From Candidatus Heimdallarchaeota archaeon (lineage in GTDB: Archaea; Asgardarchaeota; Heimdallarchaeia; Heimdallarchaeales; Kariarchaeaceae), in contig WAKA01000060.1 of the NCBI GenBank assembly GCA_015523565.1, positions 1-36,915 of the forward strand: 36,915 nt of DNA. The letters are read 5' to 3'. Positions 34,088 to 36,915 of the stretch are shown here, one piece after another (position 1 is the first letter of the stretch; every line of letters starts with the position of its first letter). Made by a program: the position numbers and the translations under genes. The notes beneath the pieces are model-generated. The model had not been told where the DNA came from. It ran no database searches and saw only the letters and a program-made list of their open reading frames with translations.

Positions 34088-34393
34088 TTAACCGAACAAG
34101 CTTCCAAGACCAAGATCTGCTTCGTCGATCTCCTCTTCTTCTTCCTCTTCTTCCTTCTCCTCTTCGGCCGCTTCGGTTGCCCCTGCCGCGGCTCCTGCTG
34201 CGGGTGCAGCAGCCACCATTGCGGCAGATGACAATGCCTCTTCAATGTCAACACCCTTTAGGGCGGCAACCAAGGATTTGACCCTGTTTGCATCGACACT
34301 GACACCTGCAGCCTCAAGGACAGCAGTCAGATTTTCTTCATTTATTTCTTTTCCAGCTTTGTGTAGTAGTAATGCAGCATATAGATATTCCAT
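34088..34393 (-). CDS. rpl12: Ribosomal stalk protein P1 (aL12)
   Basis: [11 protein letters not shown], Ala-rich hinge, acidic tail ending GLGSLFG. Confidence 0.98.
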
Positions 34394-34412: not shown

Positions 34413-35363
34413 TTAACCGAAAAGGCTTCCGAGACCAAGATCCGCCTCATCAACCTCTTCTTCCTCTTCCTCTTCCTCCTCTTGCTCTTCGGAGGATTCA
34501 GAAGCAGTATTCTCCATTGCAGCCACAGGGACAGAGCTTGCAAGCTCCTTAAGCTCATCAGACAATGCATTTTCATCAATGGCTGCCAATGCACGAGCCA
34601 AAGCAAGTACTTTCGCTTGGGCAGTTGCCAAAACAGCCTCAGCTGTTTCTTCAGTAACATAGCCAATTTCTGCAGCCAAGTTAAGGGCTTGCCTATGGGC
34701 AGTGGCAAGAAGACCTGGATAATCTTTCATCAACTCTTCCTTGGTGATGAGCATTCCATCACTCAAAGCAACTTCCAATTCCAGTCCTACCTCGAATGGT
34801 GTGATTCCTAACCTGCCAAGAATGATTGCTAACCCTTTGCTGACCTTTTCTCCTTCCTTGACAACAACTGTGTCCTGTGGAATGGCGATTGTACCTCTTT
34901 CGATACGTGTTGGCAAGCCGACTGCATTCAATTCACTGATAAATGTACCTGGTGGCACACCTGTGTTCATTTTTGGAACCAAAACATCCTTGGGTGCAAT
35001 CTGCCCTGGTCTTGCTGCCGCAGGAACCTTATTGTTTGCAAGGTATTGGGCAATTTCAAAAGGACTCCCGTCTGCAAAAAGAAATGCGGCATTTCCGCTC
35101 ACATATTCCTTCAATGATTCTATGTTGTCAACTTCGTCCCTGACGGCGTCAATGGCAATCTTCATGAGCGTATTCTTTGCCATTTTCAGCGTCGACCCTT
35201 TCTCTCTCAAGTCTCTTCTGATTTGGTGAACTGAGGTCTCGCTCATCGGCTCCATTCTGACGATCCCGATAACTGAATGTGCCTTCAGCTTTTCCTTCAA
35301 AAACTCCAAGGTTTTTGCTTTCTTGGGTCTCGCTGATCTCTTGTTCATGATTGCTATGCTCAT
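34413..35363 (-). CDS. rpl10: Ribosomal stalk protein uL10/P0
   Basis: KNTL, A.ARPG.IAP.D, NTG.PPG, L..LGI.P; acidic tail ending like P1. Confidence 0.98.
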   Translation of the reverse strand: MSIAIMNKRSARPKKAKTLEFLKEKLKAHSVIGIVRMEPMSETSVHQIRRDLREKGSTLKMAKNTLMKIAIDAVRDEVDNIESLKEYVSGNAAFLFADGSPFEIAQYLANNKVPAAARPGQIAPKDVLVPKMNTGVPPGTFISELNAVGLPTRIERGTIAIPQDTVVVKEGEKVSKGLAIILGRLGITPFEVGLELEVALSDGMLITKEELMKDYPGLLATAHRQALNLAAEIGYVTEETAEAVLATAQAKVLALARALAAIDENALSDELKELASSVPVAAMENTASESSEEQEEEEEEEEEVDEADLGLGSLFG

Positions 35364-36016
35364 GCTTCTGCACCTCCAATTTCAACGGCAGGACCCATGG
35401 TTGTTTTCACATGGACATGCTTGATGTTTTGTGCTCCTTGCTCAAGACGATTCTCAATGTCTCTTAATACAACTTCAATATTTTCTGCAATGTCGTCATC
35501 GTCCATATCACGAGTCGCAACCCTCGCATGGATGACTGGATTCTGCCTTAGTCTAAATTTGGCTGTCCGGGAAAACCTGTCAATCATTGTTTCCAAGTTC
35601 GCGTTGGGTGGAAGGACATTCGGACTCTTCCCAAGTGGTCCCAGATACCTACCAAGATATCTACCGACCTCTGCCATCATTTGTGGCACTGCCAGCACAT
35701 AATCAACACTCTTTGCAAATTTCTTTGCCTCTTTTGGATTTTTTGACAATGCTTCCAATTGATCCTTGGAAAGGGTAACATCAACACCCAACTCTTTTGC
35801 CTTGTCCAAGACATCATCTGGACCAACAACTGCAAGTTTCACCGGTTTATTCGGTTTGTGTGGAAGAACAATCTGCGCACGGAACCTCTTAGAAGGATCC
35901 TTCAGATTAATGTTCTTCAAGCCAATGGATAGATCAATGCTTTCAACAAATTTTCTCTCCTTGGCTTTTTCCTTTGCTTTCTTAACTGCTTCCTTGATTG
36001 CTTTTCGATCGATTAT
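35360..36016 (-). CDS. rpl1: 50S ribosomal protein uL1 (full length only with an ATA start at 36016)
   Basis: The conserved N-terminus (IKEAVKKAKE…RKFVESIDL.I.LKNINL) lies upstream of the ORF-track TTG. Other motifs: LGRYLGPLGK, KTTMGP. SD GGAGGTGA at 36027-36020. Confidence 0.95.
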   Translation of the reverse strand: MIDRKAIKEAVKKAKEKAKERKFVESIDLSIGLKNINLKDPSKRFRAQIVLPHKPNKPVKLAVVGPDDVLDKAKELGVDVTLSKDQLEALSKNPKEAKKFAKSVDYVLAVPQMMAEVGRYLGRYLGPLGKSPNVLPPNANLETMIDRFSRTAKFRLRQNPVIHARVATRDMDDDDIAENIEVVLRDIENRLEQGAQNIKHVHVKTTMGPAVEIGGAEA

Positions 36017-36019
36017 ATG

Positions 36020-36099
36020 TCACCTCCTGCTCCTGAATTGAAAAATTCAGTCTACGCAGGTTTTTCGTAGACGAAAGTAAGCCTTGCCTGACCTACTCC
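36020..36099 (-). promoter_or_regulatory. Structured uL1-operon 5' leader (putative L1 autoregulatory element)
   Basis: Hairpin GGAGTAGGTC/GGCTTACTTT; hairpin GTCTACG/CGTAGAC; alternative fold CCTGC-GTAGA-CTGAATT[TTTC]AATTCAG-GA-GCAGG overlapping the SD. Confidence 0.7.
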
Positions 36100-36122
36100 T
36101 CAGTTCTATGTCTTCCTCAACT

Positions 36123-36130
36123 TTTTTAAA
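36123..36130 (-). promoter_or_regulatory. Putative TATA box of the rpl1-rpl10-rpl12 operon
   Basis: TTTAAAAA on the minus strand, about 24 nt upstream of the first leader hairpin. Confidence 0.55.
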
Positions 36131-36211: not shown

Positions 36212-36508
36212 TCACTCTTTAATAGCTCTGACTTTGTCTTCCATTTTCCTATCCTTGTCCCTCCTATCATCAATTTTCAAAGTGGTGACTACACGTTTTG
36301 CTCCTGCTTTGAATATTGTCTCATGCGCGAGTTTTGTCACTTCCAATATTTGATCAATCGTATCTGCCTCTATTACCGTACCCATTGGATGGTGAAGAAC
36401 TCGTATCCCTTCAAAGGAATCGCTTTCCCTTATTGCTTCTTTTACAAATTTACTCAGACTTGTTCCTTCTCCAACAGGTGACGTAACCAACTCGGCAATT
36501 ACCTTCAC
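36212..36508 (-). CDS. MTH1187/YkoF-like thiamine-binding protein
   Basis: IAE…P.GEGTSLSKFV.EA, PMGT.IE, H…GAKRVVT.LKIDDRRDK…ME.KV. Confidence 0.92.
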   Translation of the reverse strand: MKVIAELVTSPVGEGTSLSKFVKEAIRESDSFEGIRVLHHPMGTVIEADTIDQILEVTKLAHETIFKAGAKRVVTTLKIDDRRDKDRKMEDKVRAIKE

Positions 36509-36915
36509 AAAACAAATAGTTCTCACTTCTTCTTATTATTTTTGTTAATCTCTCTTTACAATTTGTGGCATTGACTCGTTTAAATGTGATTAACTACAAT
36601 GCTTATTCTGACTAATTTCCTACAAACGTAGTTTTTACGAAAATTGTGAAAAGGAAAAAAAGAAATCAAATGTCCAAATTAAGGTCTTTTGTCAGTTCTC
36701 CTTTCACAAATCACACAAACTTCAATTAACGTAGATGAAACGAATGTTATTTTGTAGTTTTGCACTAAGGGTTTAATGAAGGATAGTGTAACACTTTTCG
36801 TCATTATATTATTTCTCCCATATGTTTTCTTTTCCTATGGTTTTGTTATCATGAGGAAGTCCCGATGTCGATGCAAACGGTATTGTCGACTTGCCATTCG
36901 ATGCAGGTCCTAATA

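Follow-up and report, generated by a model that had tools for sequence, protein, structure and literature searches.

What is the structured RNA that lies directly before the uL1 gene of a Heimdallarchaeial genome, and does it control the genes behind it? The window analyzed here, meaning the whole stretch of 36,915 nt, covers forward-strand positions 1-36,915 of contig WAKA01000060.1 from Candidatus Heimdallarchaeota archaeon (assembly GCA_015523565.1; GTDB lineage Asgardarchaeota; Heimdallarchaeia; Heimdallarchaeales; Kariarchaeaceae), and its ribosomal protein (r-protein) genes uL1, P0 and P1 are preceded by a leader that folds into two helices around an asymmetric loop. Coordinates of the leader element and of the three genes are window positions on the minus strand. 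Feedback by uL1 through mimicry of ribosomal RNA (rRNA) is a textbook case, and autoregulation of this kind, with rRNA outcompeting the mRNA, is established in bacteria and in Methanococcus (PMC3616713; PMC10931766; PMC2175363). An earlier reading of the same DNA, here called the original prediction, proposed that the leader contains a uL1 site with permuted connectivity, built into a bistable switch. Our analysis suggests, with a probability of about 0.8, that uL1 represses translation of its own mRNA through the element at 36060-36026, an operator that occludes the Shine-Dalgarno sequence (SD).

Structure and conservation of the leader element

The proposed fold, fold A, consists of the following parts, named after helices 77 and 78 (H77, H78) of 23S rRNA.

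36056-36060, minus strand: CCUGC, 5' strand of the basal helix (H78 mimic), pairing with 36030-36026
36051-36055, minus strand: GUAGA, long strand of the asymmetric loop, counterpart of the rRNA strand between H78 and H77
36033-36050, minus strand: H77-mimic hairpin CUGAAUU / AAUUCAG with loop UUUC, arms 36050-36044 and 36039-36033
36031-36032, minus strand: GA, short strand of the asymmetric loop, its A invariant in relatives
36026-36030, minus strand: GCAGG, 3' strand of the H78 mimic

Sequence and coordinates are as the original prediction gave them, and the first two G of the SD lie in the basal helix, as it also said. Fold A is the minimum free energy (MFE) structure of the isolated 43-nt element (-14.1 kcal/mol, z -2.9) and also within the whole leader (z -2.5). 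Most of its pairs have a pair probability (P) of 0.88-1.0, the innermost upper-helix pair having 0.70 (ViennaRNA, 36101-36000); probabilities computed with 70 nt of upstream DNA were set aside because untranscribed sequence was mixed in. A search descriptor for the uL1-site core, permitting either strand order, is by itself commonly matched (approximately three loose matches per strand in the 37-kb window), and the significance of fold A therefore rests on its conservation and not on the fold itself. Rfam has no match at the element, which is uninformative, since the E. coli and Methanocaldococcus uL1 sites are missed too.

In order to follow the element through its relatives, uL1 loci were taken from 38 genomes of the same order and from other families of the class. 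Of 30 leaders from the order, 29 have, directly upstream of the uL1 start, the form seen in the window, in which the strand of GGAG type comes last. So do 6 of 8 from a second order-level family (f7), where the capped helix has an insertion of 63-68 nt. Fold A is kept in some 35 related Heimdallarchaeia genomes. The distance from the motif to the start region is 5-18 nt in all relatives, a fixed position beside the ribosome-binding site, and the hairpin loop accepts insertions of 3-68 nt.

The two helices covary strongly. When 17 distinct leaders are aligned by MAFFT with the motif as anchor (A3; without trimming, the two families were misaligned), 92% of the cells are paired and both-sided changes occur in 9 of the 12 pairs, for example from G-C to A-U (8 sequences) and from C-G to U-A (5 sequences). 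None of 500 shuffles matched the covariation score, and pairing drops to 25-59% when the partner is slid by 1-3 columns as a control. Compensatory changes affect four of the five pairs of the H78 mimic; five pairs of the H77 mimic covary, its closing C-G and third G-C being invariant. The columns of A3 without variation are those of the two loop-closing G-C pairs, of the third G-C pair and of one A in each strand of the loop. The loop-closing pairs are present in 17/17 leaders and, in an alignment of 24 sequences that includes 6 leaders from outside the seed and gives the same picture of covariation, in 24/24 (H78 mimic) and 23/24 (H77 mimic). RNAalifold finds both helices unaided on the MAFFT alignment. 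Within the long loop strand the last A never changes and the first base is mostly G (A in 3 leaders); the bases in between vary, as does the length of the strand (5-7 nt), and the short strand may begin with G, A or U. A covariance model (R1), run against 151 genomes of the phylum, matches exactly once in each of 15 genomes, in every case at the start of uL1, and recovers 6 leaders absent from its seed alignment.

Three other sets of leaders deserve mention for their own sake. At the f7 locus L105 (genome G073; -75 to +27), the sole permuted match puts its 3' strand (UGACGG-AA-GCU) in uL1 codons 6-9, and could be a chance match or a relocated operator. Two loci of family f8, with genomes of 1.3-1.4 Mb (L155 and L158), share, approximately 60 nt before uL1, a conserved leader arranged much like a pseudoknot, CCUUAAC ... 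CUGC-GA-GUUAAGG ... GCAGGAGGG, and the SD at its end; it fits the uL1-site descriptor in neither strand order and may be a different operator. In genus g14 of family f5 (L113-L123) a strongly conserved A/C-rich block at -140 to -60 of uL1 contains CUCAAAACACACAAAAAAC and repeated GUCUAAAAA, with no uL1-like motif.

rRNA mimicry and strand order

The 23S rRNA of the same genome (contig C157) was aligned to the Rfam archaeal large-subunit model. Its L1 stalk reads H77 GUCAG, GA, H78 GCG ... UGC, a 12-nt strand ending in A, and H77 CUGAC. The leader shares with it the words UCAG-GA-GC and UGC...A-CUGA, and the first four base pairs of the H77 mimic are those of H77 itself (CUGA/UCAG), which bears out the claim that this helix-loop-helix mimics the rRNA site of uL1. 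The GA of the loop is common to the leader, this rRNA, the E. coli site and the Methanocaldococcus site. The two RNAs differ in how these parts are connected. In helices 76-78 of the rRNA the strand of GGAG type is the first one, the closed helix is H78, H77 leads into H76, and the long strand is 12 nt long. In the leader the GGAG-type strand is the last one, the closed helix is the H77 mimic, the open one is the H78 mimic, and the long strand is 5 nt long. The rRNA itself (L035, 383-3660) is 3278 nt long against 2987 model positions, which corresponds to about 290 nt of insertions.

Known uL1 sites of mRNAs were compared in the same manner. The E. coli rplK leader, GGG-GA-GCCUC[3]GAGGC-GUUAUUA-CCC, has the strand order of rRNA. 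For the archaeal site within the coding sequence (CDS), a search pattern modeled on the crystallized M. vannielii fragment gave 105 exact matches to genome stretches; in Methanocaldococcus indicus and Methanobrevibacter acididurans the site reads GUGAAG-GA-GGCU[13]AGCC-GAGAAA-CUUCAC and lies 24-27 nt after the uL1 ATG. It is present in 32 of the 34 loci examined (30 loci of a Thermococci-like group; three of four other loci), and the single Nitrososphaerota locus examined lacks it. The original prediction had stated that the GGAG strand is 5' in described sites, and this is so in the 23S rRNA of the same genome, in the rplK leader of E. coli and in the in-CDS sites of euryarchaea. The permuted order occurs in every Heimdallarchaeial leader with the motif, and the rRNA order in the genome's own rRNA, E. 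coli, Methanocaldococcus, Methanobrevibacter and the Thermococci-like group. Since all three references taken from real sequences (own rRNA, E. coli, and the in-CDS site of Methanococcales, Methanobacteriales and the Thermococci-like group) have the opposite order, the circular permutation that the original prediction had noticed is real.

A side result of these searches is that the canonical in-CDS site is near-invariant at +24 to +71 of uL1 in Methanobrevibacter, Methanocaldococcus, Methanofastidiosia, Thermococci and their relatives (L179-L258, L286-L319). Rfam 15 has no family that detects either this site or that of E. coli.

The closest parallel is the L1-L10-L12 operon of Methanococcus and Methanocaldococcus (MvaL1 type), which has the same genes, uL1-P0-P1, and the same presumed repressor, and in which the same core, G-GA-G opposite C-G...A-C, stands between two helices. 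The MvaL1-type site, however, is inside the uL1 CDS, 24-30 nt downstream of the ATG; there the GGAG strand is the 5' one and the loop caps the H78 mimic, whereas the Heimdallarchaeial site is in the 5' untranslated region (5' UTR), touches the SD and has the reverse strand order. The descriptor finds no uL1 site in the homologous codons of the uL1 gene in the window. The leader of the bacterial L11 operon (rplK or rplA; E. coli) likewise mimics 23S rRNA by means of a hairpin with an asymmetric loop in the 5' UTR, and it acts by translational repression (PMC3616713, PMC10931766), but it keeps the rRNA order and controls rplK-rplA, unlike the permuted site at uL1-P0-P1. In the genome studied here L11 lies on another contig than uL1, and a second operator, sought upstream of L11, was not found. 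A uL1-like site in a 5' UTR has reportedly been described for Halobacterium; the sampled loci lie outside the Halobacteria.

The reversed order, together with the lack of a site in the homologous uL1 codons, argues that the Heimdallarchaeial operator arose independently and was not inherited. To our knowledge, all described uL1 operators, bacterial and euryarchaeal, retain the strand order of rRNA, and a covarying permuted mimic means that the recognition core can be rebuilt with other connectivity. Homology searches seeded on known sites would miss such permuted elements, and Rfam misses even the classical ones. As far as our literature search found, Asgard archaea had no earlier candidate for an r-protein leader, and this one offers a compact 35-nt RNA for studying how domain I of uL1 reads the H77/H78 junction.

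Proposed repression of the operon and competing explanations

The genes of the operon and the remaining parts of the leader are as follows; the gene assignments come from the list of open reading frames and from Pfam.

36122-36130, minus strand: TATA-like box TTTAAAAAA, by direct reading, 22 nt upstream of the 5' hairpin
36074-36099, minus strand: 5'-terminal hairpin of 10 bp (4 G-U) with a 6-nt loop, inner 8 pairs at P 0.87-1.0
36066-36072, minus strand: segment GUCUACG, 5' arm of the alternative fold B; MFE partner GU-GAC at 36023-36019
36020-36027, minus strand: SD GGAGGUGA, by direct reading, at a fixed distance from the motif in relatives
36011-36013, minus strand: AUC, most likely start codon; alternative AUA at 36014-36016
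35360-36013 (36016 with an AUA start), minus strand: uL1 gene, PF00687
34413-35363, minus strand: P0/uL10 gene, PF00466 and PF17777, its ATG overlapping the uL1 stop (ATGA)
34088-34393, minus strand: P1 gene, PF00428
34088-36013, minus strand: uL1-P0-P1, the presumed regulated unit

The encoded uL1 is an ordinary member of its family (E 1e-47 against L1 of M. jannaschii, a protein crystallized together with its mRNA site). Upstream of the operon is a gene of the thiamine-binding family (36212-36526).

We infer that uL1 binds the leader and represses translation there. The element has the features of a uL1 operator, namely two helices, an asymmetric loop with closing G-C pairs on both sides, a 2-nt strand ending in A, a long strand running from G to A, and a place on the uL1 mRNA at the ribosome-binding site; it departs from known operators in its strand order. 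Occlusion of the ribosome-binding site is suggested by the first two G of the SD, which lie in the 3' strand of the basal helix, and by the start region 5-18 nt away. uL1 in excess of free 23S rRNA would bind and lock fold A, and its bulk on the basal helix would block the 30S subunit from the SD and from the weak AUC start that lies 6 nt beyond it. Control would extend to P0 and P1 through translational coupling, as the overlap of the P0 ATG with the uL1 stop suggests.

Several observations weigh against this interpretation. We found no uL1 complex with a permuted site described in the literature. Within the same class the descriptor finds no motif in 11 leaders of family f5, R1 has no matches in other Asgard families among the 151 phylum genomes scanned, and the sampled loci of other Asgard classes, where uL1 directly follows another gene, are without the motif. 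Outside the source genus the mimicry shrinks to the closing pairs and the A/G residues of the loop; in Heimdallarchaeum aukensis, for instance, H77 of the rRNA is GUCAG/CUGAC and the leader has CCGUU/AACGG. The transcription start site (TSS) is a prediction from the TATA box. Finally, the loop of the source genus also fits the simple kink-turn (K-turn) consensus, and another K-turn binder is conceivable.

The original prediction went further and described a bistable switch, in which fold B, the ON state, frees the SD and uL1 captures fold A as the OFF state. A perfect 7-bp complement does exist at the claimed positions (36072-36066 with 36056-36050), and we estimate the chance of finding one within 35 nt of upstream RNA at roughly 0.002-0.005; fold B would, moreover, be transcribed first, so a kinetic role is possible. 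Its formation would disrupt the whole basal helix but a single pair of the upper one, leaving a 6-bp upper hairpin in place, which is less than the destruction of fold A that had been claimed. The energies do not describe two near-isoenergetic folds: fold A with the 5' hairpin has -24.5 kcal/mol and fold B with the hairpin -19.3 (ViennaRNA, 36101-36000), and although the helix-enforced ensembles are just ~2.7 kcal/mol apart (-27.9 for fold A vs -25.2 for fold B, with a model error of a few kcal/mol), the pairs of fold B have P ~0.01, i.e. about 1% of the ensemble. Fold B is the MFE structure in none of the four congeners, and in the window its 5' arm pairs with the 3' part of the SD instead. 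Fold A dominates without protein, and as the ground state it makes an anti-hairpin unnecessary for repression.

The comparison between genomes, which gives strong covariation to fold A across the Heimdallarchaeia, points in the same direction for fold B, where the only changes are pair-breaking. The arm reads GUCUACG, GUCUACA and AUCUACA in three congeners, which leaves 7, 6 and 5 bp, uncompensated, and approximately 4 bp in the fourth (L004), where the loop has changed. Thus 6 and 5 bp are retained in two congeners, but the substitutions in L002 and L003 break pairs of fold B and restore none, and the alternative is neither conserved nor covarying. In the sister family, which includes Candidatus Heimdallarchaeum aukensis and H. 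endolithica, a TATA box lies ~22 nt before the flank of the motif and leaders appear to begin within ~7 nt of the operator. This spacing leaves no room for an anti-hairpin, and with the operator present apparently without upstream RNA, the switch would stand outside the conserved mechanism. We therefore regard the two-state switch as quite unlikely. A 14-bp extension masking the SD and AUG in the Heimdallarchaeum leader was not counted, as it is probably, by TATA spacing, partly upstream of the TSS.

A second explanation, which we hold to be very unlikely, is that the element is a K-turn bound by L7Ae or another K-turn protein and not by uL1. The rRNA site of uL1 has itself been classed as a K-turn (Kt-77/78), and in the source genus the loop has the parts of the simple consensus: a C-stem, a bulge of 3 nt (GUA), tandem GA opposite GA and an NC-stem. 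L7Ae represses archaeal mRNAs via 5'-UTR K-turns (PMC5539422, PMC6298567), and its autoregulation in archaea likewise involves an r-protein and a helix-bulge-helix beside the SD (PMC5539422). Unlike those K-turns, the Heimdallarchaeial leader has no conserved signature bases: the tandem G-A/A-G after a 3-nt bulge is seen in the source genus only, and among relatives the long strand may have any base (G, U, C or A) at its penultimate position, and the short strand may start with G, A or U. What stays invariant are the positions that the leader has in common with uL1 sites in rRNA, in E. coli and in Methanocaldococcus, and matches occur at uL1 genes only, one per genome. That the leader is a structured RNA with no protein ligand, such as an mRNA-stabilizing or constitutively SD-masking stem, is scarcely plausible, for although fold A is stable alone and already buries part of the SD, a plain stem would not be expected to match the rRNA site of uL1 or to keep an unpaired loop with an invariant A and closing G-C pairs while its helices covary.

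Putative promoter, 5' extension and start codon

A TSS near 36100 is plausible because the spacing of the TATA-like box recurs in two congeners (L003 and L004), which have the same TTTAAAAAA box 20-22 nt from the hairpin. The separate 10-bp hairpin described in the original prediction at 36099-36074 is present at this predicted 5' end. In the MFE structure the segment that follows it, GUC-UAC, pairs with GU-GAC and thereby lengthens the basal helix across the SD (pair P ~0.57-0.84), and comparable pairing of the segment to the SD is predicted in congeners. The genus-specific 5' extension (hairpin and GUCUAC) is thus more likely to provide 5'-end protection and a longer SD-masking stem than an anti-hairpin. 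It is conceivable, if unlikely, that this extension, by pairing with the operator loop or the SD, and the AUC/AUA start together form a kinetic or three-state switch that sets the output of uL1-P0-P1; if true, the archaeal lineage closest to eukaryotes would have an r-protein leader that resembles a riboswitch.

The start codon of uL1 is the second oddity of this locus. No ATG, GTG or TTG occurs from the in-frame TGA (36022-36020) to codon 33 of uL1. The original prediction chose ATA (36016), which is probably one codon off: the likelier start is AUC at 36013, because ATC (36013-36011) aligns with the ATG of other genera and the aligned codon lies 6 nt after the SD in all four congeners. The three other congeners have ACA-ATC, AGA-ATC and CAG-ATA at the aligned position, so that the four genomes of the genus (window, L002, L003 and L004) have ATC three times and ATA once, each 6 nt after GGAGGUGA. 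The predicted non-AUG start on uL1, a highly expressed r-protein gene, is a genus-wide trait, and this AUC/AUA start beside the candidate operator can be tested.

The 5' hairpin may serve to stabilize the 5' end of the transcript. A hairpin is found at the predicted transcript 5' end throughout the family (L003, L004, L006, L007, L008, L012), with a sequence that differs within the source genus. Four other genera share a conserved AGAAGCUC...GAGUCUUCU stem there, the loops of which vary.
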